DNA of 48,109 bases from assembly GCA_000182565.2 (NCBI GenBank), contig KQ257452.1, one strand, 5' to 3'. The notes under the pieces are model-generated. The model did no database searches and was not told the origin of the DNA. It saw only the letters and a program-made list of their open reading frames with translations. The DNA comes from Spizellomyces punctatus DAOM BR117. Lineage: Eukaryota. Position numbers and translations under genes: made by a program. Shown one piece after another: positions 1,400 through 43,318 of the stretch (the stretch's first letter is position 1; every line of letters starts with the position of its first letter).

Positions 1400-1692
1400 T
1401 ATGCTTCCTCTGTGGGCATCCCTTTATAGATGTCCATGATACATATTTACCCGGAACATATCATTTTGTTGAGAAGGTTTGGATCTCGGCAGAATATACC
1501 TGCATATGCGTTCGAGATCGGCTGCACCAAAGCGACCTCTTTCCTGTAGACTTTCAATTATATGCATTTTCTACCAGAAAAGTGTGCAGTTTCCAGCGCA
1601 CAAGTCAAAACTACAGAGTCATTGTAATACTGCAGTGAATGCCCTGCAAAGAGTACCACTTGGAACAATTATTGCAACTGCAGGCTAAGCTA

Positions 1693-2491
1693 CTATGAAG
1701 TGGCATCCATTGTGCCTTGTCTGGGAATGCGGTACCGTCGTCGCGCTATGAAGTTCATGGAGATTAGTTTTATGATCGATACAGTGCAAGCTAAGAGGAA
1801 GGGCAGCATCCATACCATTAATGAACCAATCATTAAGCTGTTTTGCGTTTAATTCGGTCTCGTTGCATAACTCTTCTTTCTCGGCCTCACTTGGGTAAGG
1901 GTTAGCGCGATGCTGATAATACCACTGAAATAGTATTTGGGTTTTCCACGGAGGATGGTTGGGACGTTTCGGTCGACCGCTCTCGCTGACCGACCGCTGT
2001 TGACCAGACGATCCTTCCATTTGGCGTCCACGTGCTTCTGGTTCTTCCTGAGTTCCAAGTCCTTTGACGGGTAATCCCTCTGTATCATGAAATTCTGTGA
2101 GGGAGCTGCTTTCCACCGACTTGGAACGGCGCGAAAGAGGTGACGTGCGCTTTCGCTTCAGGTCAGAATTAACGAAAAAGGTGTCCATTTCGTCGCACAA
2201 ACGATCGAGCGTGCGCTCGAAATCATTATCATTTTGGGCTATCGAACGATACAACGCAATTTGTTGTCTAGATGCCACTGCAATTACAGACAAGATAAAG
2301 TGATCCAGGCTGTCGCGCGAGCGCCGCGAGCGGTCGATATGCCTCTTATTTGCTTTCAGGAGGTTAGTGACCAGGTCAAGACGTTCGGGAATGTCATCCG
2401 GCGTTAAGGAATTTATAGCAGTATCTCGCAATGTCAAAAGGCGGTCCGCTACAGGAAAGAGTGGATGCTCCTCTGCTTCGACGATCTCCAT
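1693..2491 (-). CDS. TALE-class homeodomain transcription factor
   Basis: WYYQHRANPYPSEAEKEEL...QLNDWFIN. Removing a GTATGG..TAG intron (1815-1746) restores WFINARRR and a stop at 1693-1695. The PYP insert marks TALE class. Likely ATG 2491 (MEIVEAEEH). Confidence 0.88.
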
Positions 2492-2766
2492 GAAGGGCAA
2501 TTTTTGGCAGAAAGTGAAGTTTGACAGGGACCGTAGGAAGTCCCAGCTACGTTTGGCGTGTGTGGTACCAGCACGTGCCCCGTGTGCCACATGTCCCTGT
2601 CGTGATTACATGATACGCATCTTCCTGCGCGCTCAGAGGATGTCCTAGATCAACCACTCCATTTTTTGAGGTACTGGAGACCGAGTCCTATCTCGCCACA
2701 GAGTGAACCCACAGTGCGGCGCATGCGTGCCTGCTGACCATCAGAAAGTCGTTCACAGTTACGGGC

Positions 2767-3675
2767 ATGAGTGAAACTCCGCTACAGTTTGCGTCCCCTC
2801 CGGCGTTAGCTTCGTTCGCTTCGGTTCCTGAACGTGCATCTTTTCCTGGATCGTACGTTTTGGTTCCGCAAGAATATCTTCCACTGATGGTAGAGCATTT
2901 TCCTTCCCCCTTCTTTAGCTGCGTAAAGGATGTCTACGCAGCTGGACCAGTTGTGCCTCAGACAATTTTGACGGAAACTCCTCTCAAGTCGTCAAAGAGT
3001 CAGATGGAAGCCTTTGCCTCTATAGTAGCGCCAGTTGATATTAGCCTTAACAGTATGACGAACCAAATTGATTCAGGTGGAGGTGGACCTGGTGACAATG
3101 CAAGCAACCATCCAAAACCGCAGCTTTCATTAGAGCTCGGGAACAGCTCAGGTGTCAACAGAACCAAGAGTAAACCTAGGGCCGGACCATCACACAAACC
3201 AGAGGCACTGAACAAGAGGTGGCGCACCCCCCGGCCACTGAACCCCTTCATCATATATCGGCGTGAAAAGCATACGTACATTCTGGCTAGAAATCACGGA
3301 ATACCAAATAACGAAATTTCCAAATTGGTAGGCCAGATGTGGGCCAACGAGCCGGAGTCGGTCAAATCCGTGTATCGTCAGCGCAGTGAAGAAGAGAAGC
3401 GAATACATCAATTGAAGCACCCTGGCTACAGATTTGCTCCAAGAAAACACAAACCGAAGCGGCCAAAGAAGTCAATTTCATGCCAAGAGTTTAAAGACCG
3501 ACCCGCTGGACATCAAAATTTAAGAGCAAGTCGTGCTCACTCAAATGAAGATAGCGTGGAAGAGAACACGAGCTCATTGTCGGCAGACTTCATCCATCCG
3601 ATACTGCCATCCCATCAATGTGTTTATGCTTACCACCCCTCTCAGCTGCAAGCTACAGTCCCTTTCGAGACGTAG
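2767..3675 (+). CDS. MATA/SOX-TCF-type HMG-box transcription factor
   Basis: TPRPLNPFIIYRREKH...IPNNEISKLVGQMWANEPESVKSVYRQRSEEEKRIHQLKHPGYRFAPRK: a single sequence-specific HMG box with basic tail. Intronless ORF. Confidence 0.92.
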   Translation: MSETPLQFASPPALASFASVPERASFPGSYVLVPQEYLPLMVEHFPSPFFSCVKDVYAAGPVVPQTILTETPLKSSKSQMEAFASIVAPVDISLNSMTNQIDSGGGGPGDNASNHPKPQLSLELGNSSGVNRTKSKPRAGPSHKPEALNKRWRTPRPLNPFIIYRREKHTYILARNHGIPNNEISKLVGQMWANEPESVKSVYRQRSEEEKRIHQLKHPGYRFAPRKHKPKRPKKSISCQEFKDRPAGHQNLRASRAHSNEDSVEENTSSLSADFIHPILPSHQCVYAYHPSQLQATVPFET

Positions 3676-11636: not shown

Positions 11637-11882
11637 TCTGATGATTTTTGTGACGGAAGGCGGAAGATTAAGCGATAGCCAGGAATGTGCTCTAAGAATG
11701 GCGGACTTTTGAAGATTTCTATTGATGAATGCGGAGGACCCCATTCACCAATGGCCAACCTCAAAGTTGATTGAATGCAGCACACACCCTTGAAATCCCT
11801 CAATTGCTTACGCCATATTGTGGGAATATATAAATAGCAACCTGTCGATTGGAGCCAAGTGCATCGTGCACGTGACATCATA

Positions 11883-12019
11883 CAGTACAGCTAAAGCAGA
11901 TTAGTGTGCGCCATCACGTGCGTCACATGATCTTCAAAGATGTGGACACGGAATTGAAATGGATAGACCATCACGTGAATCACGTGATGGCGCACACTAT
12001 CTCTGCTGTAGCTGTACTG
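11883..12019. mobile_element. Tc1/mariner-type MITE with ~38-bp imperfect TIRs, flanked by TA
   Basis: TA|CAGTACAGCTA...TAGCTGTACTG|TA. Inner perfect 19-bp arms tagtgtgcgccatcacgtg (11902-11920) and cacgtgatggcgcacacta (11981-11999). Confidence 0.75.
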
Positions 12020-12024
12020 TACTG

Positions 12025-12766
12025 TAGTGTGGAGGTGATTGAAAATGGCATTATTATCCAGATTAATCCGGTTAATCATATCGCATAATCAGCACCCCCG
12101 TCTATCGCTCAAAGCGGTGAGGCATGCATGCTAATCGGTGTGGCATGCTAATATGTTTTTTTTTAAAAAAAAACTGAGGTGAGGCGCATACCAAAGGTCT
12201 ATAAAAAGGGGGCCTTTTGCTGTCTCTTCCCTCTTTCCTCTTTACCCATCCTCGACTCGCAAACCATCTGCGCAACCCTCATCGCGACTCGGTCCAATCA
12301 TGAGAATGCAGATGTGGTGGTGTCGAGGACCTCGTCCGCCCGACAGCAACAGCGATCAGAACCAGCAGCAACCAGTTGGATCCGATAACAAAACTGCTAT
12401 TATGCTGCCATATTTGTTGAGCTTGGTTGGTATGTATCAAGGGCATTTCTTGCATTTCTTGTCATCGGGTCATCTTCTGACATGCAGTTCTAGTCTCCAA
12501 GCCTTCGTTACTGAAAATCCTCCGGCTTGTGAGTCTCCCTGACGATGTTAACTCTCTTGCGAAGACTCTGGCTTCAATGTCAATCAAGAGTTCCGGATCA
12601 AGGCCCAGTAGGAACGCGTGTGGTGGTGGGCAATTATCCGGTTTAGAACCGTTACGTATTGCGTGTATAATGGCCTAGTAGTGGTTAGTTAGCTTTTCCG
12701 AGCCAGTTTACGCTGGTTCACTCCCTGGTGTAGTAGCTAGTGCCAGTTTCTGTCACCTCTACACTA
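12025..12766 (+). mobile_element. Non-autonomous Spu-1-like Fanzor element (ghost locus), 29-bp imperfect TIRs
   Basis: Left tagtgtggaggtgattgaaaatggcatta (12025-12053) vs reverse complement of 12738-12766 tagtgtagaggtgacagaaactggcacta: 24/29 identical. omegaRNA-like right end; no RuvC ORF inside. Confidence 0.8.
12300..12678 (+). CDS. Small spliced ORF (~105 aa) inside the ghost element, ending CIMA
   Basis: TATAAAAAG at about 12200, ATG 12300, intron GTATGT(12430)..CTGAC..CAG(12487)/TAG(12493), frame open to TAG 12676-12678. Confidence 0.35.
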
Positions 12767-12781
12767 TAACGATAAACATAA
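12693..12781 (+). ncRNA. Fanzor1 omegaRNA-like scaffold (12693-12766) plus flank-derived guide
   Basis: TTTTCCGAGCCAGTTTACGCTGGTTCACTCCCTGGTGTAGTAGCTAGTGCCA...CTCTACACTA closely follows the SpuFz1 scaffold as I recall it (unverified). Stems gagccag/ctggttc and tggtgtag/ctacacta pair. Confidence 0.72.
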
Positions 12782-13228
12782 AATGGCCATCTGATGACTG
12801 GAACATATCTGCAGTTGCCACATATCATTCCATATGAATCTCATCTCCCTCATCTTTCCAACAAGAATGGGTTAAGGATCAATGCTATTACTGCTATACT
12901 GCTGCAATCACAGGTATGTAATGTCTTTGTGAACTTTTCCCCACTCTCACTATCCAGTTTACTATTATCCCAACTTTCGACAACTGAGCTATTGCCAATA
13001 CGCCAAAAAGTTGAGAATATATCCGCTAGCATTTACAGAGCATCTGCTCCTAATGCACAATTCATATGGGCAGTAGAAATGTAATATAATATTATTTATT
13101 CTTGTATCTGATAATTAATAGTTCAGCTCGTACGTCACACAGGGAATCGCGTGGTATTTCAGGTTCTCACGGTCTTGGTTTTACTGTACCTTGCACTTTG
13201 GACTCGTATCGTTGAGTGATTCAACCCA

Positions 13229-23309: not shown

Positions 23310-23513
23310 ATGGAACTGAGTGCAATAATCCTTTACTAAATTTTAATAAACAAAAACCTTTATACTAACGCAATTCGATGCAAATATTCTGTACTTCGAT
23401 GCACAGCTGAAATTACGTCATCCTCTGCAATTTTCGATGCAAATCTTCTTGCATATAAGTCCGGAACGCGGACGCCTTATTTAATTTTAATTCCTTTCTG
23501 AATTAAGTTCAGA

Positions 23514-26462
23514 ATGGCTCAGCAATTTAGAATGGTAAAATGGCTCGGCATCACATGGTTAGGCAACCTCGAAATACCTGGTGTCCAAAAGGCTACTGGC
23601 GCTCAGGATAAAGTTCTCGCAGAACTGCCACCGGATAAGGTGCCCCTTTGGTGTCACCATCCTAAAAAAGGACGTCTATGGGGCACAGCCACGACGGAGC
23701 AACTTATAGAGATCACAGCCACCAATCATTACATATATGAGATTCTTGTATTCGCCCCTTATCGTCACCACAAAGTCTACTTTGACATTGACCCCCCTAA
23801 ACAGAAGAAAGGTGAAGAAGAGGGTACACCCATCTCCTTGAATGATGCTAAGAGTATTATTTTGCAGTATTTTCCGCATGCGCGCTTTCAGATTTCTGGT
23901 CATGAAGGTTCCTGGCACATCATCCTGTCTAACTACTATGCGGGAAATCTGGAATCTACCGCAGTCCTCCAACAGATCGCCAGGAAACACGGCTGGGATG
24001 TTAGTGTATACTACAGGAACAGCAATTTCAAGTGTATCAACCAAAGCAAACCCGGTCAGGCAGTGCAGGACTACATCGAGGGTAACACCGCGAGGAGCAA
24101 GCACTTTATCCTCCATGACTTTGACGAAGATGCAATCGACATCAGCACCATGACCTTTGACCTGGGCGAACTTCCTGCCGTCACATCTCTGAGGAAGAAA
24201 AATGCCGCAGGTCGAACTCAATCTCAGAGCATCGACATCCTCTCCATCCCCCAACTTGATTTACCCGTACCCGACAACTATGACCCTAAGAACAACCTTC
24301 AAAAACTCAGCATGTTGCCAAATCCTCCCAGGGGAAGTCCCGGAACCCTTGATCACCACACTTGCTGGAAAGTCATGTGTTGGTGTCGGCAAGTAGGGAT
24401 TGAATTCCCTAAGTTCTGGGCATGGAACAAGCAGAAAGACCTTTCTCCCGCTCGGATGCAAAAGTTCTACCAGGCTTGGAACTCTGCAACACGGTACAAC
24501 GTATCACCTAAGTTTATGGATACGCTGCTGGAACGCTTCTACCCGGACATCAACGTTTCAGTCGTGACGAAGAAGTTCCAGCGCCAGTTTGACATTCCAG
24601 AGTTGCACAAAGTTGATCATGACTATTTTGAAGATACCGATATTGCACCTCCCATATACATTCCCGATGGGGTAGGTAATCCTTTCGGTTGGAATGTAAT
24701 CTTGAATCAAGCGGCCAAAAAATTTACCCTGTTAGGCGGAGGTATGGGGAGGAACAAAACGGGGGCTGTTGCTAGATACATCAGGAGGTACGGTCAGAAT
24801 CTGCGAACCCTATGGATATGCCCCCGTATTACTTTAGCAGAAAACACTGTAGGCAGGCTTGCGGAGGAATGCTTAGATTTCCTGTGTTATCGTACATGCA
24901 ACACCTTGCAGAAGATCGAAGGCAAGATGGATGATTCTCAGAACGTCATCTGTAGCATTCAGTCTCTGCATTATCTCACCGAAATCTTCGACATCGTAGT
25001 CGTGGATGAACCGGAAACCGTCTTCACCTCATACTTCGGCAATGCCGAAACCCACCAAGCAAACCTCTGGAAGAACTGGGAACAGTTCATCGCCTTCTGC
25101 CAGATGGCAAAAAAGGTCATCTTCATGGATGCCTTCACGACGAATCTTTCCTTGAATGTTGTCAAGGGAATCATAGAGAACGGCTGGGAGAGGCAGGAAT
25201 ACGAAGTCCTCGATACTTCCTTGCCTCCCTTACCCCGCAAGTTCGTAGAGATCAAACTTTACGCGGATTGGATCTGCTCTGCTCTGCGTGATCTCAAGGA
25301 GGGCAAAAAATTGTATATTTTCACTCCTTTCAAACGAGGTAAGCAAGGTGTTGATGCCATCCTTAAAACCATCTTGAAAACATTTCCTGACTGGGAAGAA
25401 GGAACTGACATCTTCGCTTACTATGCCGAAAACGAAGCAGAAAAGAAAAGGCTGAGTAATGTCGAAACCATTTGGGAGCGGTGCCGAGTTGTCATCACAA
25501 ATGTGTCCATTTCGGTTGGTGTCAACTTCAACAAAAAGGATGTCTTCGACCGCATCTACGGATATTACTCACCCTTCATTCCTGTGCGAGACTTTATACA
25601 ATCCCTCCACCGCGTCCGTCACCCAAAGGATTCCACCATGTTGCTCCACCGGGACTTCAGGCGATCTTTTGGCATATGCAACAATCGGAGGCCAGCCGAA
25701 ATGCCTGATTGCCTCATCTTTCGTCAGATGGTGTCCGACTTAGAAATCGAATACAATGCTAACAATAACACTAAAAAATGGGAGACATTCAACATGTTCT
25801 GCCGCAAGGCTGGCATCGAGATACATCCCGTTTCTACTGAAGCCGGACTGGAGAACAATCAGGAATATCTGAAAAGTTTCCCCTCAAAGAAAGACCTTGC
25901 GTTCTACTGGGGCAACATAGCAGACATCGAGTCCCACCAGGCGGAACAGTATCTTTACATGAGTTATCGCAACGATGCCTCCCTGGAGCAATGCCTTCAG
26001 TTGGCAAAGTATTTTTTCAAGAAGCGGTTCTCCGAGGATACTGAGGATGACATTATGGCAGAAGTGTGGAGTGCTAAGCCCGACTTTATCGACAAGGTTA
26101 TAGAACTCAGATCGAATCCCTCGCATATCATCAACCGCGTGTTTACCGAAAACGGGGTGACACTGGGCGATGGTACTCCCTTACCTAACCAGATGCAGAC
26201 TTCGATACCGGTGGAGGAAATCAAAACTCAGTTCAAGTTCGACAGACGCAGGGAGGAAGGAACAGGCTTAGTGGCACAGATGATCAATGCATACTTTGGG
26301 ATGAAAGCCTATTACCAAAAAGACAGCAAGAGGAAGCAGAAGCAAAATGAGAACAAGAGGAAACGCGAGCGCCTACATGAAACCAGCCAGACATTCATTG
26401 ACTTAGCGGAAGTGTGTGTAGCGTATCATAACAAATGGTTATGCATGGAACCAGAGGGATGA
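23514..26462 (+). CDS. AEP primase(-polymerase) + PriCT-2 + UL9/origin-binding-like SF2 helicase fusion
   Basis: AEP motifs VYFDID, SWHII, DVSVY; W-rich PriCT-like WKV..FWAWNKQ; helicase GGMGRNKT, VVVDEPE, MDAF, SISVGVNF, QSLHRVR. Confidence 0.85.
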   Translation: MAQQFRMVKWLGITWLGNLEIPGVQKATGAQDKVLAELPPDKVPLWCHHPKKGRLWGTATTEQLIEITATNHYIYEILVFAPYRHHKVYFDIDPPKQKKGEEEGTPISLNDAKSIILQYFPHARFQISGHEGSWHIILSNYYAGNLESTAVLQQIARKHGWDVSVYYRNSNFKCINQSKPGQAVQDYIEGNTARSKHFILHDFDEDAIDISTMTFDLGELPAVTSLRKKNAAGRTQSQSIDILSIPQLDLPVPDNYDPKNNLQKLSMLPNPPRGSPGTLDHHTCWKVMCWCRQVGIEFPKFWAWNKQKDLSPARMQKFYQAWNSATRYNVSPKFMDTLLERFYPDINVSVVTKKFQRQFDIPELHKVDHDYFEDTDIAPPIYIPDGVGNPFGWNVILNQAAKKFTLLGGGMGRNKTGAVARYIRRYGQNLRTLWICPRITLAENTVGRLAEECLDFLCYRTCNTLQKIEGKMDDSQNVICSIQSLHYLTEIFDIVVVDEPETVFTSYFGNAETHQANLWKNWEQFIAFCQMAKKVIFMDAFTTNLSLNVVKGIIENGWERQEYEVLDTSLPPLPRKFVEIKLYADWICSALRDLKEGKKLYIFTPFKRGKQGVDAILKTILKTFPDWEEGTDIFAYYAENEAEKKRLSNVETIWERCRVVITNVSISVGVNFNKKDVFDRIYGYYSPFIPVRDFIQSLHRVRHPKDSTMLLHRDFRRSFGICNNRRPAEMPDCLIFRQMVSDLEIEYNANNNTKKWETFNMFCRKAGIEIHPVSTEAGLENNQEYLKSFPSKKDLAFYWGNIADIESHQAEQYLYMSYRNDASLEQCLQLAKYFFKKRFSEDTEDDIMAEVWSAKPDFIDKVIELRSNPSHIINRVFTENGVTLGDGTPLPNQMQTSIPVEEIKTQFKFDRRREEGTGLVAQMINAYFGMKAYYQKDSKRKQKQNENKRKRERLHETSQTFIDLAEVCVAYHNKWLCMEPEG

Positions 26463-26494
26463 ATGTAGTAAAGGTTATAAATACATTTTTTTGT

Positions 26495-26682
26495 GCAGTG
26501 AACCACTGCTATCTGGGTGGCGAGGGTAAATGACCCCGATCTCGGGTTCTATGTATAACATACAAGTTGACTTCGGGGTCATTTACCCTCACCCTACACA
26601 ACCCCATAATCAAGCAGGTAGCTTGTCGTTATCTAAGGAAGCTAGGAGAGAACCGCCAACCCACGCCAGACATTTTCACTGC
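26495..26682 (+). repeat. ~190-bp nested-palindrome repeat, copy 2
   Basis: Perfect 18-bp arms gagggtaaatgaccccga / tcggggtcatttaccctc around tatgtataacata. Confidence 0.93.
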
Positions 26683-27039
26683 GTTGTTAAGGTGTCACTC
26701 AGAATCAGAATCATCTTGACGCATGAAGCGATCAATGGCTTCTGCTAACTTCTGTTCCTTGTACTTGATGTAGCAACGTAAACATCTGATATGTCGAGCC
26801 ACCCAAGGTATCACCTCTAAGCAGTCACGACATGGTCTTTCTCTGGGATTTCCGGACATGTTGTATATTGACATTAAATCAGCTTTTAAATGTGACGTCT
26901 TTCGTTCCAGATAGAGGACAACATTTAGTATAATAACAGCTACATGTAGAGCTGCTTATGTAAAGACCCCTAAAAATCCGTGCATCGGTGCACAAAAAGC
27001 TAAACACATTCTCCGCTCAATACACTAACTCCTCATGCC

Positions 27040-29169
27040 ATGGACGCATTAACAACTCAGGAACAGCGTGTGAAGGCGACATGGTTCATCATCTGTCCAG
27101 ATGTGGACAATACATTCTTCGAAACGGCAAAAGCAATGCACCAAATCCTGACCGGAAAGTTGTATAAAGTACGTTACAAAACTTCAGATACATACCTGTA
27201 CGAACGCTGGAATATTGCAAGACGGACAGGATACAATTTTTCCACTGCGGGCAAAGTCATCATCGAGCTGGAGAAAACAGTATCTCAAGAGGACATGCCT
27301 ACAACACTTGGCACCATCTTGATGATAGAGAAGCTGTCAAAGGAAAACAGGCTACCATACGAGGAAGTCTGGCATAAAACCATCCAATTTTTCGGACGAC
27401 GACAAGATGTGGTGGCAGTCCAGATGCGCAACGCACTAGAAGAAAGCCAGCGCGGAGCATGTCAATTAGAAGAAGAGGAGTGCCAATCGGACGATCGTAT
27501 TGATTCAGCAGTTGTCATAGATTCAGCAATAGACCCTAGCGGTGATGCTTCTGTAGTAGAAGGAGGGGAGAATGGATGGAGTAGACGATTAAGAAAAAGA
27601 ACTAGAGACGCAATAACCGATTCCTCCTCGTCGGAATCCGAAGCAGATACAGCACCCGAAGAGCGCTTGCTAAAGCTGTCTTCGACTTACGAGCATGAAT
27701 ACCTAACTCCGCAGTGGTTATGGGAGAAGGTGTACCAATTAACAAATGGAATTGATCTCGATCCCTGTTGGCACGTAGAGTCAGTGGTGCGGGCAAAGAA
27801 AACATATGGGATGCAGCTAGATGGCTCCTTCATAAACGCTCTTCATTTAGAAAAATGGGACTCGGGCGAGTGGGTATGGTTGAACCCCCCAGGACATGCC
27901 CTTTTTCCTTCGCACCTCGGGCACCCAGACAACATAAATCTTCATGGACAGTTTTGGAATAAGGTGTTTCTTGAGATGTCGAAGGGACACATTGAGCGGA
28001 TCTGTGCCATCGTCCCTAATGTTGGATCTTCAACATGGCTAGCAACACTATTCAAAGAAGGCCTCATCTGCTTTCTTCACAAAAGAATAGATTGGGTGCT
28101 GTCATTAGCAGCTAAGGAGAGGAGGATGAAAAATCCGAAAACCGCCCGTGATCTCTTTCCTCGACTCATAGTTTACCTCGACAGCGACCCCACCTACCCA
28201 TACCAACAGAGATTCGCAGAGATCTTTAGTGATGTAGGATTCATTCCCGGCTATAATCTGAGGATGTGGAAACAACCGCAGCCGTTGAGGCACATCCGTT
28301 ATCTCAGTGTATGCTCTGGTATTGGTGTTGGCGAACTTGCTCTTCAACATGTCCTTCCCAGCGCGGAATGTGTAGGATATTTCGAAGTCGACAAAGACGC
28401 TTTAGCCGTGTATCAACATCACTTTCCTAATCATACGAACTTTGGGGATGTCACTAAAGCAGATGTTGGGAAATTGCCGGACTTTGACCTTCTTATAGGT
28501 GGCATCCCTTGTCAGCCGTTTTCGACAATGGTTTCTAATCATCACATCCGGAAGAACCATGATGATCCAAGGGCTGAACCTTTTAAACACTATGTTCATA
28601 TTCTCAAAGCGAAGAAGCCCCGTTGGTTTCTTATGGAGTGTGTGAGTTACATGGAAAAAGAAACGGAGCAACGGATTAGTCGAGAGATTGGAGTGTTGCC
28701 AGTAGCGATTGACAGCGGTAATTTTGCAGCACAATCAAGAAGACGGAATTATTGGGCAAACTGGTATATTCCCCAACCGATACGAAGTAAAGGTATTAAA
28801 CTGGAAGATATTGTTGAAAGATCTGTTCCACCGAATCCAGCAATCAAGAGGAAAGAATTGAAAGAATTCCACCCTCCGCTCGACACAGTCTCTTGTTTGA
28901 TACGCCCGATGGAAAACGGCAAAAAAACGGGGACAGTCTCGTTAAGAACCGATGGAAAATCAAACTGCTTGTTGACTACAGATTCTTATCAAAGCACATT
29001 AGTGATTAGTGGGGGTTTTCGGTTCTTGACGCACTTAGAACGTGAAAGGTTACAGGGGCTTCCGGATAATTATACGTCGATGGTTAGCTCTAACAAAGCA
29101 AGGCTGAGAATAGTTGGAAATAGTTTCAACTTGCCGACGATCGAGTACATTTTACAGCAGATGATGTGA
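27040..29169 (+). CDS. Fused DNA methyltransferase: phage Dam-type N6-adenine domain plus C5-cytosine domain
   Basis: YLTPQW..IDLDPC..W..WLNPPG (Dam-like; NPPY altered), then SVCSGIG, FEVD, GDV, GGIPCQPFS, MECV, QSRRR, ERLQGLP, GNS (C5 motifs I-X). Confidence 0.88.
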   Translation: MDALTTQEQRVKATWFIICPDVDNTFFETAKAMHQILTGKLYKVRYKTSDTYLYERWNIARRTGYNFSTAGKVIIELEKTVSQEDMPTTLGTILMIEKLSKENRLPYEEVWHKTIQFFGRRQDVVAVQMRNALEESQRGACQLEEEECQSDDRIDSAVVIDSAIDPSGDASVVEGGENGWSRRLRKRTRDAITDSSSSESEADTAPEERLLKLSSTYEHEYLTPQWLWEKVYQLTNGIDLDPCWHVESVVRAKKTYGMQLDGSFINALHLEKWDSGEWVWLNPPGHALFPSHLGHPDNINLHGQFWNKVFLEMSKGHIERICAIVPNVGSSTWLATLFKEGLICFLHKRIDWVLSLAAKERRMKNPKTARDLFPRLIVYLDSDPTYPYQQRFAEIFSDVGFIPGYNLRMWKQPQPLRHIRYLSVCSGIGVGELALQHVLPSAECVGYFEVDKDALAVYQHHFPNHTNFGDVTKADVGKLPDFDLLIGGIPCQPFSTMVSNHHIRKNHDDPRAEPFKHYVHILKAKKPRWFLMECVSYMEKETEQRISREIGVLPVAIDSGNFAAQSRRRNYWANWYIPQPIRSKGIKLEDIVERSVPPNPAIKRKELKEFHPPLDTVSCLIRPMENGKKTGTVSLRTDGKSNCLLTTDSYQSTLVISGGFRFLTHLERERLQGLPDNYTSMVSSNKARLRIVGNSFNLPTIEYILQQMM

Positions 29170-29263
29170 TAGATGGAGAAAATCTATCGATAAAACATGA
29201 AATAAAATGTCTATATAAGAGGTAAACCGGCTTCTATTCTTAGAATACAGATCAGCCCTGAAA

Positions 29264-30265
29264 ATGCAACAAGACCCCCAACCTATTGATGCCGAGTCGG
29301 CTCTATATGAAACGCTACATGCCATCCTTGACAGGATTCAGCAGTCACCCAACACCAAGAAACAGGATAAATCGCGTCTAAATCAACTCAAAGGCAACAA
29401 TCTTCTTTCCTTGTTCCAAACACCTGAGATACTCATTAGCAGGATCAAGGAAAAATGGACAAACGAGCATACATATTACAATTATATCAAATTGGTGTCA
29501 AAAATAGCACGCAATGCTACGAGGGCTGAAAAGGCAATGATCCTTCATCTAGCAGAGGATGCAATGGACGACCTTGATAGTCATTTTACAGACACATTCC
29601 ACTCTCACTTCAAGAATGTGACATTCGAAAGGTTCAAACAGTCAAAAAATGAAGCAGCATCCCAAGAGATGACCCAGGAAGATATCACCAATTATGTCCC
29701 TTACAGCGAACTCTTAGCAGGATTGAAAGTCGCTTTGACATTCATCAATGAGGGAAATATAGTGGAGCATCAATTTCTAATTGCTCTTGGGATGAACCTG
29801 GATGCAGATAAAATTCGTAGATGCGATATTTTCAAAGCGATGATTAGTGAAGACGCTAATGTTACGGTGAACAACGAAGGGAAAACTGTCTTCATCCGAA
29901 AATGCAATAAGACTGGTGAAAAGAATGTCCTCATTCAGATGGGAAACACCATTCAACCATACGTTAACATGTTAGCAAATGTCAGAAAGGGCAATGGACA
30001 GGATCGTCTTTTTCTAAAACCTGATGGAAGTATTCCAACCGATGCCTGGTATAGCGACGAATTTAGTAATGCTATGGAACGAATGTTTGGAAAGCGTGTA
30101 ACACAGAAACGCCTTCGAATTTCAGTGGGGATGCATCTTTCTGAAAGGGATAATGGAGATCACGCTTATCAGAAGGAAATCGAACGTAGGATGGGTCATA
30201 CCTATGCTGTTCATCAGCGCTATTACAATCTGTTCAAGTCATTTGTAGAACAGCCTAGGAATTAG
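29264..30265 (+). CDS. Tyrosine recombinase (PLV/NCLDV type)
   Basis: IRRCD (Arg I), NKT (Lys), KRLR (HxxR equivalent), RRMGHTYAVHQRYY (His and catalytic Tyr). Confidence 0.8.
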   Translation: MQQDPQPIDAESALYETLHAILDRIQQSPNTKKQDKSRLNQLKGNNLLSLFQTPEILISRIKEKWTNEHTYYNYIKLVSKIARNATRAEKAMILHLAEDAMDDLDSHFTDTFHSHFKNVTFERFKQSKNEAASQEMTQEDITNYVPYSELLAGLKVALTFINEGNIVEHQFLIALGMNLDADKIRRCDIFKAMISEDANVTVNNEGKTVFIRKCNKTGEKNVLIQMGNTIQPYVNMLANVRKGNGQDRLFLKPDGSIPTDAWYSDEFSNAMERMFGKRVTQKRLRISVGMHLSERDNGDHAYQKEIERRMGHTYAVHQRYYNLFKSFVEQPRN

Positions 30266-31494
30266 TGACTATTTTCATAATCGTTTACTGCATCTCTTGC
30301 ATTACGTATAAGTTCACTTCTCGGCTCCCAAGTTGACTGATCACGGTCATATCCTCTCCATAATACTTCATATTCTACTACTTGTCTTCCACCAACTCGA
30401 CGTGTTCTTTTATCTAACAATGCTTCAACTTCATACTCACCTTCTGGTACTTCCTCTTCATCGTCTTCAATCTCAGGTTCAACTTGCGGAGCCTCCCCAG
30501 CGGCATCCTCTTTAGGAATTAGACGCAATTGCCAAGCCGGATATAGACCTGGCAGTATGTGATTAGTATTGACAGATTTGATTTTATAAGAGTTCATGTA
30601 GTTAGGGTGAGGATTAGGAACAACGGCTGTTATCTCATACTTCTCTTCAGAAAAGTAACCCATTTTAGCACGCCTTTTTATATCCGTCCCTTGACCTGAT
30701 ATGTACTTTCTGACAACATCACCTACATTGAATGGAGGTAGTACCTTCACACCCTTTCCTTTAGTCCTAAGCGCACGTTGGGCTTGAGCCGCTCCTTGAA
30801 CATCTGCCTCCATCTCTTGTACCATCCGAAGTTTCTTACCACTGCCAAAACTTACTGTGGAATTAATGTTCTCTACAATCTGTGGCAACATACTCACCCA
30901 GTCTCTATTTCCTAAACGCATCCCCATGAATAGCGCTCGCTTTATCGTGCCATTCATCCTTTCTACCTGTCCATTGGTTTGAGGGCTTCCTGCTTTCGAA
31001 TAACGCCATTCAATACCGTGTTCCTCTGCATACTGTGGAGTGATGCCTTGGTTTTCATTTCCATTATCTGATTGAATACCATGAATCTCGACACCATCCT
31101 CGATGAGATCTTTTAGAAAATTGACAACACTCTGTTGTCTTGTATCTTTCAACGCTTTCGCATAAACACATTTAGTTNNNNNNNNNNNNNNNNNNNNNNN
31201 NNNNNNNNNNNNNNNNNNNNNNNNNNNNNNNNNNNNNNNNNNNNNNNNNNNNNNNNNNNNNNNNNNNNNNNNNNNNNNNNNNNNNNNNNNNNNNNNNNNN
31301 NNNNNNNNNNNNNNNNNNNNCCTTCACCATGCTAACAAGGTCCTTTGGGAAATCTCGCTCTCTGGGTACTTTGCTTTGTAAAGCGCGTACAAACGATCTC
31401 TGCCCATGTAAGCATGCTCTCTATAGTAGAGCTGCTTTAAACGCTGCTCATCTTCTCGTGTTATATCTTTCCAGTTAGGCTTCCTTTCCTCCAT
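30262..31494 (-). CDS. Retroviral-type (rve, DDE) integrase with C-terminal chromodomain, interrupted by N gap
   Basis: IQSDNGNE, SPQTNGQVERMNGTIK, FNVGDVVR; chromodomain YEVEALLD..YEVLWRGY..STWEP; N-terminal LYY..MGRDRLY beyond gap 31178-31320. Likely ATG 31494. Confidence 0.9.
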
Positions 31495-31595
31495 CTTATC
31501 GATAAGATCAGCTTTAAAAACATGCCGGTAAAGCACGCTCCACGTGCGTTAACAGTGCTCTTCAAGCACCCGGTACGGAGTGCCAATGCCAGCAA

Positions 31596-32300
31596 CTAAA
31601 AGTAATCATGAAACCCGCTGGAGTCACAGTAACGATACATTCCTTTAGCATCACTAGCATCTCTATTGATGTAGGCAAACGAATAAGGTTCTTTGGTGCA
31701 CTCGGTGAGAAATGTTAGAACTTCTTTATCATCTTTGTAGGCGGAAGCAAGTAACTTTGCTAAAAGTTTCATGTCTTCTGCATTGTTTTTAAACACCACC
31801 CACTCGGTGGTGCAGTTCTTCATTTTACGTGAAAGTTGTCCGGTTACACTCTGGATGGCTACAATATTTCCTATATTGAAATGCCTCCCTTTTGTATAGA
31901 GTTTCGATAACTCCTTGTTGAGTTCTTTACTTTGCGCAGAATCACCAGCGTCGTCAATGAATAATAGAAGTGACTTCTCAGGCGTTTTCTTCTGTTCTTC
32001 TACAATTTTAGCGATGGATGCATTGGAAACCTCGTCTGTAAAGTAGATATTTTTATGTTTTGTGGTTTCAGCCAGTACCTTCACAGAAGCATCGTATTCG
32101 ACTGTGTCGGACATGATAATGACTCGATCGTGTAATTTAGCATAGACATCCTCAATCAGACCGCAGACTAATGCACTTTTACCACTTTTCCTCGGAGCGA
32201 CAAGAGTTGTACATAGAGGCAGTGATGCCAGGTCACGTGGAACACGAGGATCTCTCTTCTTTTTCCCTACGGGAAAGATTGGGCGTGGTTTATAGGACAT
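31596..32300 (-). CDS. A32-like FtsK/HerA genome-packaging ATPase
   Basis: Walker A APRKSGKS, Walker B LLFIDD, GRHFNIGNIVAIQ. Confidence 0.92.
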   Translation of the reverse strand: MSYKPRPIFPVGKKKRDPRVPRDLASLPLCTTLVAPRKSGKSALVCGLIEDVYAKLHDRVIIMSDTVEYDASVKVLAETTKHKNIYFTDEVSNASIAKIVEEQKKTPEKSLLLFIDDAGDSAQSKELNKELSKLYTKGRHFNIGNIVAIQSVTGQLSRKMKNCTTEWVVFKNNAEDMKLLAKLLASAYKDDKEVLTFLTECTKEPYSFAYINRDASDAKGMYRYCDSSGFHDYF

Positions 32301-32341
32301 TTAAATTTTCCTTTGTCTTTACATAAAGGTAAGGAAATATC

Positions 32342-33061
32342 ATGATTAACGAAGTGACATACTGCTCCTTAAAATCTCGATCATTCTCAATACCTCCTCG
32401 GAGGATGGAAATGATGAAGGTTCTCTCGGTTTCTTTCCTTCAAGATTGGGATCTGGTCAACGATTCTAATAACACGATTAATTTTGTTGAAGAAGGCGAT
32501 CCAACCATCTTATCTGCGAAAATACCTAATGGTAATTACAGCATCGCTAATTTTCCGAATGCCGTTGCTCAAGCGTTGAGTTCAGCCGGGACGCAAGCCT
32601 ACAATGCCACATACGACTCTGTTACGAGGAGATTGACACTTTCCACATCTGGTAGCAAGAACTTTAAGGTTCTTGCTGCTTCGAGAGGCACGACATCATA
32701 TCTTCTAACAGGAATGTCAAGATGGAGTGAAACGGGATATTACAAGACTATCACACTGAAGAATGCTGTCAATTTGTCCGGGTCATATCCAATGCTTGTC
32801 ACAAGCAACATCCAAGTCCAAGGAAGCCGTTTCCTCAGTGACTTCAATGATTCCGCCCAATCCGTAATTGCTGCGGTTGTCCCTGATAGTTTCGGCAATG
32901 TAGTCACGTGGACTAACGATGGTGGTGAATGGCTCCCTGTTGATGATACTATCTCCAAAATCGAATTCTATCTTATTGACTCGATGACCGGTTTGGAAGT
33001 TGCACTCAATAGTCCGTTAACCGTTCGGTTTGCATTTACAGATGATGTTGCGGATGTCTAA
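32342..33061 (+). CDS. Putative minor capsid (penton, single jelly-roll) protein
   Basis: VNDSNNTINF..IPNGNYS..L..AL..YDSVTRRL pattern typical of PLV/virophage mCPs; beta-rich; next to ATPase and MCP. Confidence 0.7.
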   Translation: MINEVTYCSLKSRSFSIPPRRMEMMKVLSVSFLQDWDLVNDSNNTINFVEEGDPTILSAKIPNGNYSIANFPNAVAQALSSAGTQAYNATYDSVTRRLTLSTSGSKNFKVLAASRGTTSYLLTGMSRWSETGYYKTITLKNAVNLSGSYPMLVTSNIQVQGSRFLSDFNDSAQSVIAAVVPDSFGNVVTWTNDGGEWLPVDDTISKIEFYLIDSMTGLEVALNSPLTVRFAFTDDVADV

Positions 33062-33088
33062 TTTTTTTTTTCTTAGAGTAAGAAAACA

Positions 33089-33670
33089 ATGGAAGAGCAA
33101 AATCAAAATCATCAAGAATCGAGTGCCGTTCCACAAGATAATGTAGAACCACCCGCTGAACAAGCACCTGTTCAAAAAGCAGAAATTATACCAGAACAGC
33201 CTCCAAAGCAAAAGGTGAAACGCCCGATGACGGACAAGCAACGGGCTGCATTGGAGAAGGCGCAGAAAGCGAGGGCTGAACAATTGCGCCTAATGCAAGC
33301 AAAACGCGAGAAGGAACGGAAGGAGCAGGATAAACAAAGGAGGATCGATGAGGCCAAACGCATCCTTGAAGAGGAGAAGGAACAGAAGCGGTTGGCGAGG
33401 GAAGAACGACGAAACACAAAGCGAGGAAAGAAGGCAACACCAACTAGGAGCAAGAGATCCAAACCAGCAGCAAAGGCGCAGCCAGCAGCAATACGTCCAT
33501 CTAAAAAAAAGAGCGTAATTTTGAAATTCGGTGATGATGAACCATTCTTTGACTCTAGACCATTNNNNNNNNNNNNNNNNNNNNNNNNNNNNNNNNNNNN
33601 NNNNNNNNNNNNNNNNNNNNNNNNNNNNNNNNNNNNNNNNNNNNNNNNNNNNNNNNNNNNNNNNTGTTGA
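33089..33670 (+). CDS. Basic coiled-coil protein (possible core/DNA-condensing protein); 3' end in N gap
   Basis: KRPMTDKQRAALEKAQKAR; K/R/E-rich. Confidence 0.6.
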   Translation: MEEQNQNHQESSAVPQDNVEPPAEQAPVQKAEIIPEQPPKQKVKRPMTDKQRAALEKAQKARAEQLRLMQAKREKERKEQDKQRRIDEAKRILEEEKEQKRLAREERRNTKRGKKATPTRSKRSKPAAKAQPAAIRPSKKKSVILKFGDDEPFFDSRPXXXXXXXXXXXXXXXXXXXXXXXXXXXXXXXXXXC

Positions 33671-33742
33671 GGAGGACAACTATGGTGGTATTTTTGGCTG
33701 AAAAATCTTCCATTTTTTTTTTCCTGCAATCAGTAAACAAAG

Positions 33743-34996
33743 ATGTCAGAAGAAGTTGCTGTACCACGTAACTGGATCTTCTCAACCAATTCCTTCGCCA
33801 AAAGTTACTCCGATCCTCGCGGTGAGGGGGTGTCAATCTATTCTCCGATAGGTCAAAGTACATATACGACAAAGTCAAGAAACCTGACTCCGATTAAGAT
33901 CACTTGCGACTCGAATTCGGTCTCTTTCATTTTGCAGAAACTAATTCTGTCAATGGATGTTTCTGCATACGATAATGCAGGGAACCTGATAACTCCTGGT
34001 ACAGGTGTTAAAAACATGTATCTTGGCTTGGAATCCATTATTCAATCATTGACCATCAAAGCAGGAGGAGAAACAGTTGTCAATATACCAAACTATCCTC
34101 TTTATCTAGTACAAACGTACCGCAATCTATCTGCCGGTAGTAAGAAATTGTTGAGCCAACTTTCCGGATATGGAAACACCAATATCTTTGCAACATCGAG
34201 TACCATCTCCATCAACCATCACCCTTTTGTGGGTTTCTTTCATCCGACAAATGACCAGTTCTTCCCTGTTTGGGCACTTCCAAATCAAGCACTCGAAATC
34301 ATAATCACACTTGCGGATCCTTCAACCATCTTTACATCGGCTGGAGTTGGAGAGATAAGAGTATCGAATATCAGAACTTTAATTTCGTATGTTACACCAC
34401 CACCAAGCAGCGTCATCAATTCAACACGTGCTATAAGTGATGGAAAGCCAATATTCTATGACTATGTGCGCTCAACCCAAACGGAAAATGCATGTAGTGG
34501 TGGAAACCGGAATACATTTTTGCTTCATATGAGTGGTGTAAGGTCACTTCAAGGGATCGAAATGTCGTTTGTGGACGATGATGTTCTCAATGACCAGACG
34601 AAAGATAAGGCGCTAATGTATTCTTCACAAGGGCTACGCGAGTGGCGTATTCAACTGGGGCCAAATCTTACCATTCCAAGTGGAACGCAAGGGTTCAGCC
34701 ATAGCCCATCTGATAATCAAATGTTACTGGTCACACAGTTATCAAATAACAACTTTGACCAACTCGGGGAGATGGATATGTCATTCGCAGATTATGATTC
34801 AAAAGCCTTTTCATTTGGATGGAGTTTTGCCAGCAAGGATGAAGGCAGTCAGGCGGCATTGAGTTTTACAGGGACAGATGGCTTGTTAAGAGTGCATACG
34901 CAACATGCTGTTGCGCCTACGCAAAAGGTGCACATGGTCTCCACCTACCACGAGAATGTCACACTTTCCATTGGTGCTGTTGTGACTGTGGTTTGA
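33743..34996 (+). CDS. Putative major capsid protein (double jelly-roll)
   Basis: 417 aa, beta-rich; SIIQSLTIKAGGETVVNIPNY and KAFSFGWSF resemble PLV MCP signatures; lies in the morphogenesis module. Confidence 0.75.
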   Translation: MSEEVAVPRNWIFSTNSFAKSYSDPRGEGVSIYSPIGQSTYTTKSRNLTPIKITCDSNSVSFILQKLILSMDVSAYDNAGNLITPGTGVKNMYLGLESIIQSLTIKAGGETVVNIPNYPLYLVQTYRNLSAGSKKLLSQLSGYGNTNIFATSSTISINHHPFVGFFHPTNDQFFPVWALPNQALEIIITLADPSTIFTSAGVGEIRVSNIRTLISYVTPPPSSVINSTRAISDGKPIFYDYVRSTQTENACSGGNRNTFLLHMSGVRSLQGIEMSFVDDDVLNDQTKDKALMYSSQGLREWRIQLGPNLTIPSGTQGFSHSPSDNQMLLVTQLSNNNFDQLGEMDMSFADYDSKAFSFGWSFASKDEGSQAALSFTGTDGLLRVHTQHAVAPTQKVHMVSTYHENVTLSIGAVVTVV

Positions 34997-35034
34997 AGGG
35001 TTAAAATTGATAGCCCGCCTGGGGCGCCAAGAGC

Positions 35035-35226
35035 GCAGTGAACATTGTCCGCCGTTTTCGCTCTTTCTCTTTCAAGCTTCCCTTAGACAGCCACACGCTA
35101 CCTGTTTGATTATGGGGTTGGATGTAGGTTGAGGGTAAATGACCCCGAAGTCCAGTAACATGTTATACATAGAACCCGAGATCGGGGACAATCACCCTCG
35201 CCACCCAAATAGCAGTAGTTCACTGG
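35035..35226 (-). repeat. ~190-bp nested-palindrome repeat, copy 3 (most diverged)
   Basis: Same arms and core in reverse orientation, between MCP and the 99-aa ORF. Confidence 0.9.
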
Positions 35227-35232
35227 ATTAGA

Positions 35233-35532
35233 TCACTCGATTCTACCACCTGCCACCCTCTCAACAAAGTCGTCAGCGTTCTTGTGAAGTTCTGTAAGTT
35301 TCCTCAGCCCAGTGTCTCCATGACTAGAAATCTTTTGACTTTTCTCTCGGACTCCTGCTGAGAAAAGCGGTGACTCTTGTACTTGGCGATTTACGTGCTG
35401 CACATGTTTATTCAATGTAGTGGCATGCCGGACTGCTTGATTAGCAAAGTTCCTTGCTTTGGCAACATATGACGGCGCGTTATTCCACAGAACATTTGCC
35501 TTTGCTTTCGCTTTAGAAAACCAATTAGGCAT
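35233..35532 (-). CDS. Small amphipathic viral protein, 99 aa
   Basis: ATG-initiated MPNWFSKAKAKANVLWN; converges on MCP across a repeat copy. Confidence 0.55.
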   Translation of the reverse strand: MPNWFSKAKAKANVLWNNAPSYVAKARNFANQAVRHATTLNKHVQHVNRQVQESPLFSAGVREKSQKISSHGDTGLRKLTELHKNADDFVERVAGGRIE

Positions 35533-35597
35533 CTTGATTTATAGAACAGAAGAGATATTATTTTTTCAGCTCTACATAGCAAAGGAAAAAACCTAGT

Positions 35598-37064
35598 ATG
35601 GCATATTACCGAGCCAATTACTTGAGTGATACATATGCTATTTCGCCACCGATTCCAAATCTGCAAAAACGTCAAGTGGGTGTCGCACTAGACTATTCAA
35701 AGATTGATATCCTCGGACGACCACAAGTTGTCTATTCGTGGAACCGCAATGTCCATGAGAAAGACCTAGCAACAAAGACGAACTATGCAGCACCGAAATA
35801 TGAACCGAGGCTCTCGTCTTCTGATGTTCTGAAATTTTCGGCTGCCCAACGAACTACCAAGGCTTACAGGGACGGTCTTGAATATGTTAAAGCAGAGGAA
35901 GATTACAGGAAGAAACAGAAGTATCTTGATTCGATTACTCCAAGTAGACAAGGGAATGCATTGACCGTTGGAACGCAAAATTCCCTTTCAGGATTACCGA
36001 TTCCTGATGAATCAGGGCATGTGTTTTCCTATCCCGCATCAGTGACTTCCCAAACGGGCTTAATGTTTGAAGCACCACCTAATGGAAATGAGATTCCAGC
36101 ACAGCCACGTAATGTAAATTCTACTCCCCTAGAACCTGTAATTCTAACAAGGGAGACGGAAATTAGACGAGATGCAGTTGGAAATGACCGTGTCAATCAT
36201 GGGACTGGCGCTGCTGTTCCATTGGATGCGATGACAATGTCCGATGCTTATATTCCACCAATTCCAGGCAGTTTCCCTGGCTTGACTCCAGAGGTTCATG
36301 TGGAATCTCCTCAAATCGATGCCTCCGTGGAAACAATGCCTCGTAGTGCCGCACCAATTCCGCATGATACAGTACTCCTGAATGACCGCCATGATCCGTC
36401 TGGTGTAGCGGATGTTTTAGAGAGAAACTCCGTCAATGAAAAATTTATCCCGGTTCCTGCTAGAACTCCATTTCACTTCAAAGGTAAGGAAGCAACCATA
36501 TTAGCAGGTTCCAAAAGGAAAGCAAATGCACCCCCGCCGATTCCTCGGTTGAATAAAAAGAAGCAAAAAACAGAGCCAGTAACTCCACCATCAACCCCAT
36601 CACCTGTTGCTCCTCCACATCCTCCGGATGTGATTTTTGCTGGAGTTGCTCCTCATGGAACCAAAAGAAGACAGTACAAACAACCAGATGATAAGCAGAC
36701 CACGGTAAAAAGACAAAGAATAGATTCTTCTATACCCGAACGAGAGGAAGTAGAGGAAATTAGATTAACATCCCCTGAAGAAGTTGAAAAACATATACGA
36801 GCCAAAAATAGGAGAAAAGTCAATTTTGCACCAGCACCTCCGAATGTTGCTGTCAATCCTCCAACGTTAGTACCGCTAACCGCGGACTTGGGAAGCGAAG
36901 TACGTCCACTCGCAAGATTGCGAGGACAACGTGAAGCGGAATATGTTGTCCCTCCTGCACAAACACAATCGACACTGCGTGTGGAACCTACAGTTCGAAG
37001 TAGAAGGAGAAAAGGAGCAGAGGATGTCACACTTCCACCGAGGAAGAAACAGAGGATAGCGTAA
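35598..37064 (+). CDS. Pro/basic-rich disordered viral protein with NLS-like clusters
   Basis: 488 aa; KRKA, KKKQK, KRRQ, RRRK, PPRKKQR. Confidence 0.65.
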   Translation: MAYYRANYLSDTYAISPPIPNLQKRQVGVALDYSKIDILGRPQVVYSWNRNVHEKDLATKTNYAAPKYEPRLSSSDVLKFSAAQRTTKAYRDGLEYVKAEEDYRKKQKYLDSITPSRQGNALTVGTQNSLSGLPIPDESGHVFSYPASVTSQTGLMFEAPPNGNEIPAQPRNVNSTPLEPVILTRETEIRRDAVGNDRVNHGTGAAVPLDAMTMSDAYIPPIPGSFPGLTPEVHVESPQIDASVETMPRSAAPIPHDTVLLNDRHDPSGVADVLERNSVNEKFIPVPARTPFHFKGKEATILAGSKRKANAPPPIPRLNKKKQKTEPVTPPSTPSPVAPPHPPDVIFAGVAPHGTKRRQYKQPDDKQTTVKRQRIDSSIPEREEVEEIRLTSPEEVEKHIRAKNRRKVNFAPAPPNVAVNPPTLVPLTADLGSEVRPLARLRGQREAEYVVPPAQTQSTLRVEPTVRSRRRKGAEDVTLPPRKKQRIA

Positions 37065-37161
37065 GGTTTTTTCGCCCCATCTTTATCGATAAGATGGGCA
37101 CCGTCGAGCGCTTCGTCTTTTGCCAAGCTCCTCAAATTTTACTTCCTAGCTACAATATAAC

Positions 37162-43269: not shown

Positions 43270-43318
43270 ATGACGCGCGCACTGCCATCATTTAAAAAAG
43301 AAGCTATGCAAGATAAGA

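Follow-up and report, generated by a model that had tools for sequence, protein, structure and literature searches.

Fanzor was first discovered in Spizellomyces punctatus, and putative TA duplications were proposed for its SPu-1 element in the same report (Bao and Jurka, 2013, PMC3627910). As described in the main text of Saito et al. (2023, PMC10432273), the genome of S. punctatus DAOM BR117 contains 42 loci with full or partial Fanzor genes. The same text counts 19 full-length Fanzor genes in the genome and defines 134 "ghost Spu-1" loci, which have inverted repeats and lack the Fanzor ORF. In these ghost loci, about 550 conserved nt lie between 30-nt repeats with seven differences from those of the Fanzor loci, a conserved CA stands 5' of the left repeat as it does in the Fanzor loci, and the right end carries a 75-nt region resembling the RNA of the Fanzor locus. 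The omegaRNA consists of a 75-nt scaffold followed by a 14-15-nt guide that comes from the flank; CATA serves as the target-adjacent motif, and changing any of its bases abolished cleavage. Within the canonical scaffold, G17 and U18 are among the listed protein contacts, and the distal part of stem 2 can be altered or dispensed with; in the ghost RNAs, a 3-nt bulge replaces the 8-nt hairpin loop of stem 2. Four ghost RNAs supplied with SpuFz1 in human cells gave editing comparable to that of the extended canonical RNA, and the ghost loci were discussed as a source of guides acting in trans (Saito et al., 2023, PMC10432273). A 2026 study in Nature Communications (PMC13434818) brought together 126 unique ghost scaffolds, 74-76 nt in length; about one third group with the canonical and ghost1 RNAs, and a second clade is formed by about one half. 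Editing tests on twelve named ghost scaffolds are reported there, and scaffolds nearer to the canonical and ghost1 RNAs edit better than distant ones.

We analyzed a stretch of 48,109 nucleotides of contig KQ257452.1 (hereafter the window), in which the genes have introns and are of eukaryotic type, encoding among others an ATP synthase, a Ras protein, an RRM protein, and ribosomal protein P0. The P0 ORF (9490-10302, minus strand) matched P0 of S. punctatus DAOM BR117 with 100% identity across 96% of the query, the next-best match being that of Spizellomyces sp. 'palustris' (98%), and the window is thus S. punctatus DNA. At 12025-12766 we found an element that is very probably one copy of the published ghost Spu-1 family, which has lost the SpuFz1 gene and has kept its inverted ends together with a 75-nt omegaRNA scaffold. 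Its structural features are as follows.

12025..12766, plus strand: very probable ghost Spu-1 element with the Fanzor gene absent, 742 bp, bounded by inverted repeats and read depth
12023..12024, plus strand: TG, at the place where a conserved CA is reported for ghost and Fanzor loci (from the sequence)
12025..12053, plus strand: left terminal inverted repeat (repeat search and end-motif search)
12692..12766, plus strand: 75-nt omegaRNA scaffold (stem 1 at 12700-12719, linker at 12720-12725, stem 2 at 12726-12766)
12738..12766, plus strand: right terminal inverted repeat, doubling as the distal part and 3' half of stem 2
12767..12781, plus strand: predicted 15-nt guide TAACGATAAACATAA, taken from flanking DNA (published rule of a 75-nt scaffold with a 14-15-nt extension)

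The two arms are 29 nt each, complementary at 24 of 29 positions (83%), and lie 684 nt apart, which confirmed the 742-bp element and the terminal repeats given in the original prediction. When a 20-nt terminal motif was searched with up to 3 mismatches, the sole matches in the window were the two ends of the element, and at least two matches occurred in none of 100 shuffles; no other ghost fragments were detected in the window by blastn. The first two bases of the left repeat (TA) may represent a target-site duplication. The CA expected immediately 5' of the left repeat is absent from this copy, its place being taken by TG, and such a flank in a single copy points to an insertion site that is atypical or has changed, not to an element outside the ghost family.

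Just upstream, 3 nt away from the ghost element, is a 141-bp foldback (11881-12021) with outer arms of 20 nt (95% complementary) and inner arms of 30 nt (90%). The inner arms begin with TAGTGTG, resembling the ghost repeat, and the left arm at 11887-11923 was covered about 10-fold more deeply than the flank in the DNA reads. Two sub-threshold matches to microRNA-type hairpins, both located on this foldback, were the Rfam matches returned for 11850-12950 at E values up to 10. The foldback may itself be a small element with inverted repeats, belonging to a related family. Since a CA is found at 11879-11880, just before the foldback, it could be speculated that a later insertion displaced the original flank of the ghost element.

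Comparison with the canonical SpuFz1 omegaRNA was made over the 18 scaffold nucleotides that are numbered in the structure section of Saito et al. (2023). Position 75 was placed at 12766, the last base of the right repeat, and the 5' block was allowed a one-base shift. With this shift of the 5' part, 13 of the 18 named nucleotides matched (U5, C6, C7, U16, C19, G20, A29, C32, C34, U35, G37, A72, and A75). The unmatched positions were G17 (U here), U18 (A here), G22, and the pair C40/G70, which is U/A here and still pairs. A score of 13/18 was reached by only 2 of 288,172 placements in the window, and the second of these, at 18567 on the minus strand, has no ghost-like right-end terminus. A fixed pattern of 14 bases, which was picked post hoc from bases already known to match, had one match in the window (12697-12766) and none in 100 shuffles. 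The predicted linker (29-34) and stem 2 (35-75) coincide with the positions described for the solved structure (Saito et al., 2023). The locus shares with the canonical SPu-1/SpuFz1 system (PMC3627910; PMC10432273; structure 8GKH as cited there) the two stems with a 6-nt linker A29-C34, the terminal TA, and the 15-nt guide; it differs in the one-base shift of the 5' part, in the distal stem 2, and in lacking the 633-638-aa nuclease gene. The original prediction had placed an omegaRNA scaffold over the right terminal repeat, and this is supported by the published architecture being present in register as well as by the named nucleotides. It had also claimed compensatory changes relative to the canonical scaffold; this held for one pair, canonical C40/G70 to U/A, as read from the text of Saito et al. 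(2023), and the second pair of the prediction is putative.

The scaffold was predicted to fold into 8 unpaired nucleotides, stem 1, the linker, and stem 2, in this order. Stem 1 pairs 12700-12707 with 12712-12719, and the outer eight pairs of stem 2 join 12726-12733 to 12759-12766, so that both stems at the right end lie where they had been proposed; stem 2 extends further inward as a long helix, with a predicted 3-nt CUA bulge at 12737-12739. Taken alone, the 75-nt scaffold folded better than shuffled sequences (z -3.30; 0 of 200 shuffles folded as well). The same stems in a 102-nt context gave a modest z of -1.82, 8 of 200 shuffles being equal, and the wider 192-nt region 12590-12781 folded no better than shuffles (z -0.39). 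Rfam gave no matches in the whole window at gathering scores and none on the scaffold at E values up to 10 (11850-12950), which means merely that no curated family fits. A metagenome scan with the stem-1/linker pattern returned 0 loci. Internal promoter boxes of the tRNA type within 12670-12725 were considered and found to be unsupported, and ARAGORN reported 0 tRNA genes in the window.

Four public sequencing runs sharing one organism label were mapped to 11850-12950 at a likeness of 80%. The DNA run (X21) was a ChIP library of 38-nt reads; its depth, summed over both strands, was about 3-30 in flanking DNA and about 200-2100 over most of 12035-12774, a ratio of about 50-130 that is not a strict copy number because of the library type. 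The edges of the elevated depth fell in the bins 11998-12071 and 12738-12811, which contain the ends of the element. The loose ends of reads running past 12766 agreed poorly (0.45), as fits many copies with different flanks. In the stretches 12109-12182 and 12516-12626, the DNA depth was 5-30 times below that of their neighbors, and these parts of the 742-bp copy are thus common to fewer members; they probably represent variable segments or insertions that only a subfamily carries, and may explain why this copy measures 742 bp against the published size of about 610 bp (about 550 nt plus two 30-nt repeats). The former stretch contains a 16-nt direct repeat and a T10A9 run.

The same reads revealed variation within the scaffold. 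At the stem-1 pair 12705/12714, which is A/T here, G was carried by 44% and C by 43% of the DNA reads, and the similar frequencies on the two sides, counted position by position rather than as linked within single reads, fit a pair kept by compensation. At the loop positions 12709/12710, the canonical-type letters G/T accounted for 54%/68% of the DNA reads and 82%/93% of the RNA reads, and the letters of the present copy for 46%/32% and 18%/7%, respectively; the loop variant of this copy is therefore common in DNA and under-represented in RNA. The C at 12721 was carried by about 4% of the DNA reads.

In the RNA run X20, 73,740 of 26.4 million records (0.28%) mapped to the 1.1-kb stretch, nearly all of them over the element and, in almost every case, with a plus-strand first mate. 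A 64-nt GT..AG skip was spanned by 40 junction reads, in all of which the first mate was likewise plus, and the plus reads of X20 thus represent RNA of the plus strand, which is the omegaRNA strand. Contigs of X24, which leave the flanks uncovered, contained the same junction, with 12429 joined to the letters of 12494 onward. The features of the transcript and its plus-strand depth in X20 are given below.

12200..12207, plus strand: TATAAAAA, candidate TATA box for the plus-strand transcript (from the sequence; role putative)
12257..12293, plus strand: RNA depth about 110; transcript start
12294..12441, plus strand: RNA depth 850-1600; exon 1
12300..12429, plus strand: end of exon 1 of the spliced leader, starting an ORF that is unconserved between copies; RNA depth 850-1600
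12430..12493, plus strand: intron GTATGT...CTAG, 64 nt (40 junction reads, depth drop)
12442..12478, plus strand: RNA depth 8.9, where the DNA depth is about 1390; intron
12479..12589, plus strand: RNA depth 250-360; exon 2
12590..12626, plus strand: RNA depth 6,370
12627..12663, plus strand: RNA depth 31,838
12664..12700, plus strand: RNA depth 22,596
12701..12774, plus strand: RNA depth about 5,000 (from about 4,700); scaffold
12775..12811, plus strand: RNA depth 16.9; flank unique to the locus
12812..12848, plus strand: RNA depth 0.7

Over 12627-12774, the depth was 4,700-31,800 on the plus strand vs about 85-96 on the minus strand. A family-wide plus-strand transcript crosses the scaffold and terminates no more than about 45 nt beyond the right end. 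Judging from the depth of 16.9 in bin 12775-12811, which is specific to the locus, the present copy itself seems to be transcribed across its right end. Standard RNA-seq depth, in which neither a 90-nt species nor the RNA ends stood out, peaked upstream of the scaffold at 12627-12700; this peak points to an abundant, longer RNA of about 170-190 nt, though mapping of diverged copies or a first-mate bias could also shape the profile. The candidate TATA box lies 50-90 nt upstream of the start of the plus-strand RNA. Additional plus-strand RNA reads were seen over 12035-12108 (depth 100-175), upstream of the main transcript, and minus-strand reads over 12183-12256 (110-170), opposite to it.

The longest ATG-initiated ORF wholly within the element encodes 80 aa, and after splicing an ORF of 104 aa is open from 12300 to the stop at 12675-12677. 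No Fanzor ORF was found between the repeats, neither Pfam nor PDB giving a Fanzor match for the 80-aa ORF. The possibility that the internal ORF is a remnant of a Fanzor protein was also rejected, its PDB matches containing no Fanzor chain. Its only database matches were SPPG_08830 (105 aa, 52% identity) and SPPG_09412 (80 aa, 71% identity), both from S. punctatus and both annotated as uncharacterized proteins. In tblastn, these proteins aligned with the element only with frame changes and a gap at the intron, the annotated paralog P0144 (SPPG_08830) having a 21-residue gap at 12430-12493.

Might the internal part then be a small protein-coding gene, beside which the right-end hairpins are incidental? 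The spliced transcript, the 104-aa open frame, and the two annotated paralogs of 105 and 80 aa would all suit such a gene. However, the copies agree only by switching frames, and three stops interrupt the present copy at places where the frame of P0144 stays open. Among the family substitutions in exon 1, the 12 most common are spread evenly over codon positions 1, 2, and 3 (4, 4, and 4), and one-base indels are frequent, such as an extra C behind 12393 in 13% of the DNA reads and 25% of the RNA reads. No Pfam family and no PDB relative below E 0.03 was found for the ORF, and just two database proteins match despite about 100 copies. From the frame switching, the stops, the even substitutions, the indels, and the lack of a Pfam family or a Fanzor match in PDB, we read the internal part as a non-coding leader and consider a coding gene very improbable; SPPG_08830 and SPPG_09412 are probably miscalled non-coding leaders of ghost elements. 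Still less credence can be given to a generic miniature inverted-repeat transposon that is unconnected with Fanzor and whose hairpins arose by chance. Many miniature elements of the Tc1/mariner type likewise combine terminal TA with short inverted repeats and a high copy number, and the fold in its 102-nt context was modest. Against this, the omegaRNA architecture is in register, the 13 matching nucleotides were obtained at a placement preset by the end of the repeat, and the host is the very species in which ghost elements were defined.

A third reading accepts the element as a true ghost Spu-1 copy and regards it as a decayed one, a relic whose RNA no longer usefully serves a Fanzor owing to a weak scaffold variant, a lost CATA context, and low expression. 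Counting against a ghost copy like those published are the TG flank replacing CA, U17/A18 in place of the protein-contacting G17/U18, 684 nt between the repeats rather than about 550, the two stretches of low DNA depth, the lack of an Rfam match on the scaffold, and the RNA-seq peak upstream of it; the first two also count in favor of decay. So do the rarity of the 12721 C among DNA reads, the fall of the loop letters of this copy between DNA and RNA, and the poorer editing reported for scaffolds far from the canonical and ghost1 RNAs (PMC13434818). On the other hand, both stems are intact, with the pairing of stem 1 kept via a two-sided change, the read depth beyond the right end suggests that the copy is transcribed, and the distal stem 2 is described as dispensable and change-tolerant in the main text of Saito et al. 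(PMC10432273). Decay of this particular copy therefore has a substantial chance of being correct, albeit short of even. Membership in the ghost family is common to both readings, and the element shares with the published ghosts (PMC10432273; PMC13434818) the same host genome, the absence of a Fanzor ORF, inverted repeats of about 30 nt, the 75-nt scaffold over the right repeat, the 3-nt bulge in stem 2, a copy number near 100, and a guide derived from the flank, departing from them in the TG flank and in the distance between the repeats. The claim of a Fanzor-less element carrying an RNA-guide scaffold was thus borne out, by structure and by the named nucleotides, as a member of the Spu-1 family.

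By inference from other, published copies, the ghost Spu-1 copy would be expected to act as follows. The 3' end of its omegaRNA would lie 14-15 nt into the flank, so that TAACGATAAACATAA would serve as the guide. SpuFz1 made from a full-length locus elsewhere in the genome would bind the scaffold in trans, and the complex would then cut DNA in which CATA is followed by a match to the guide. The scaffold at 12692-12766 could, by this analogy, load a Fanzor in trans, two protein-contacting loop bases differing from the canonical RNA. Within the window, no partner nuclease was detected: 84 of the 109 stop-to-stop ORFs of at least 90 aa were compared with Pfam without a TnpB or Fanzor match, the other 25 all being located inside or antisense to longer scanned ORFs. 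On the model of bacterial TnpB, the natural target might be the element's own empty site, and cutting there would aid its persistence.

For the present copy, this last step looks disabled. If TA is the target-site duplication, the TG before the left repeat means that the empty site reads TGTA followed by the guide, not CATA, and given the strict requirement for CATA stated in the main text of Saito et al. (PMC10432273), cleavage of its own empty site is not expected. The window contains neither a second exact copy of the guide nor CATA followed by it, and the one other site with 3 mismatches to the guide lacks CATA. The proposed target of CATA plus guide would hence be a fair substrate in vitro, but as a native target it does not correspond to the empty site of this copy and does not occur in the window.

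A more general proposal is put forward tentatively, and we regard it as rather unlikely as a whole: ghost Spu-1 elements could be self-contained expression cassettes instead of leftovers, in which a TATA-like box near 12200 drives a spliced non-coding leader ending in the omegaRNA, the RNA of about 170-190 nt from near 12590-12611 is the precursor of the 90-nt guide RNA, and ghosts, given the 0.28% share of the X20 records, may supply most Fanzor guides of the cell. The intron, the splicing, and the TATA box are unmentioned in the main texts of Saito et al. (2023) and of the 2026 Nature Communications paper. The apparent presence of a spliced leader in the family, perhaps with a TATA-like box as its promoter, is relevant to the production of eukaryotic omegaRNAs in their native host.

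The novelty implied by the original prediction did not survive comparison with the literature, in which the ghost term, the family of 134 loci, and activity in trans with SpuFz1 have all been published; the ghost omegaRNAs of S. punctatus have by now been catalogued, assayed in human cells, and put to use in editor engineering. The observation as first stated accordingly adds nothing new to the field, although it illustrates that a true RNA-guide cassette can be recovered by reading sequence alone. The points specific to this copy, namely a missing CATA context for cleavage of its own empty site and a scaffold variant under-represented in RNA, are small but possibly useful. Among bacterial systems, nuclease-less derivatives of IS200/IS605 elements likewise keep the transposon ends and the omegaRNA region. 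They follow a common logic with the ghosts, being non-autonomous, keeping the end that provides the guide RNA, and depending on a nuclease encoded elsewhere; the ghost element differs in its eukaryotic host, its inverted repeats with TA ends, and its spliced plus-strand leader.

Two other regions of the window were also noted. At 1688-3672, ORFs encoding a homeodomain (minus strand) and an HMG box (plus strand) are arranged head to head, in a manner reminiscent of fungal mating-type regions. A block of large intronless ORFs spans 23500-43300, with G+C falling to 0.36-0.44, and looks like an integrated virus of the Polinton/Maverick type ("MELD"). It encodes a helicase matching Herpes_ori_bp (23514-26462), a C5 DNA methylase (27040-29169), a chromodomain-containing integrase (30265-31323, minus strand), a packaging ATPase of the Pox_A32 type (31599-32300, minus strand), and a 2035-aa ORF. 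The packaging ATPase matched "FtsK [Powellomyces chytrid fungus MELD virus 2]" at 71% identity and a protein of Spizellomyces sp. 'palustris' at 97% identity.
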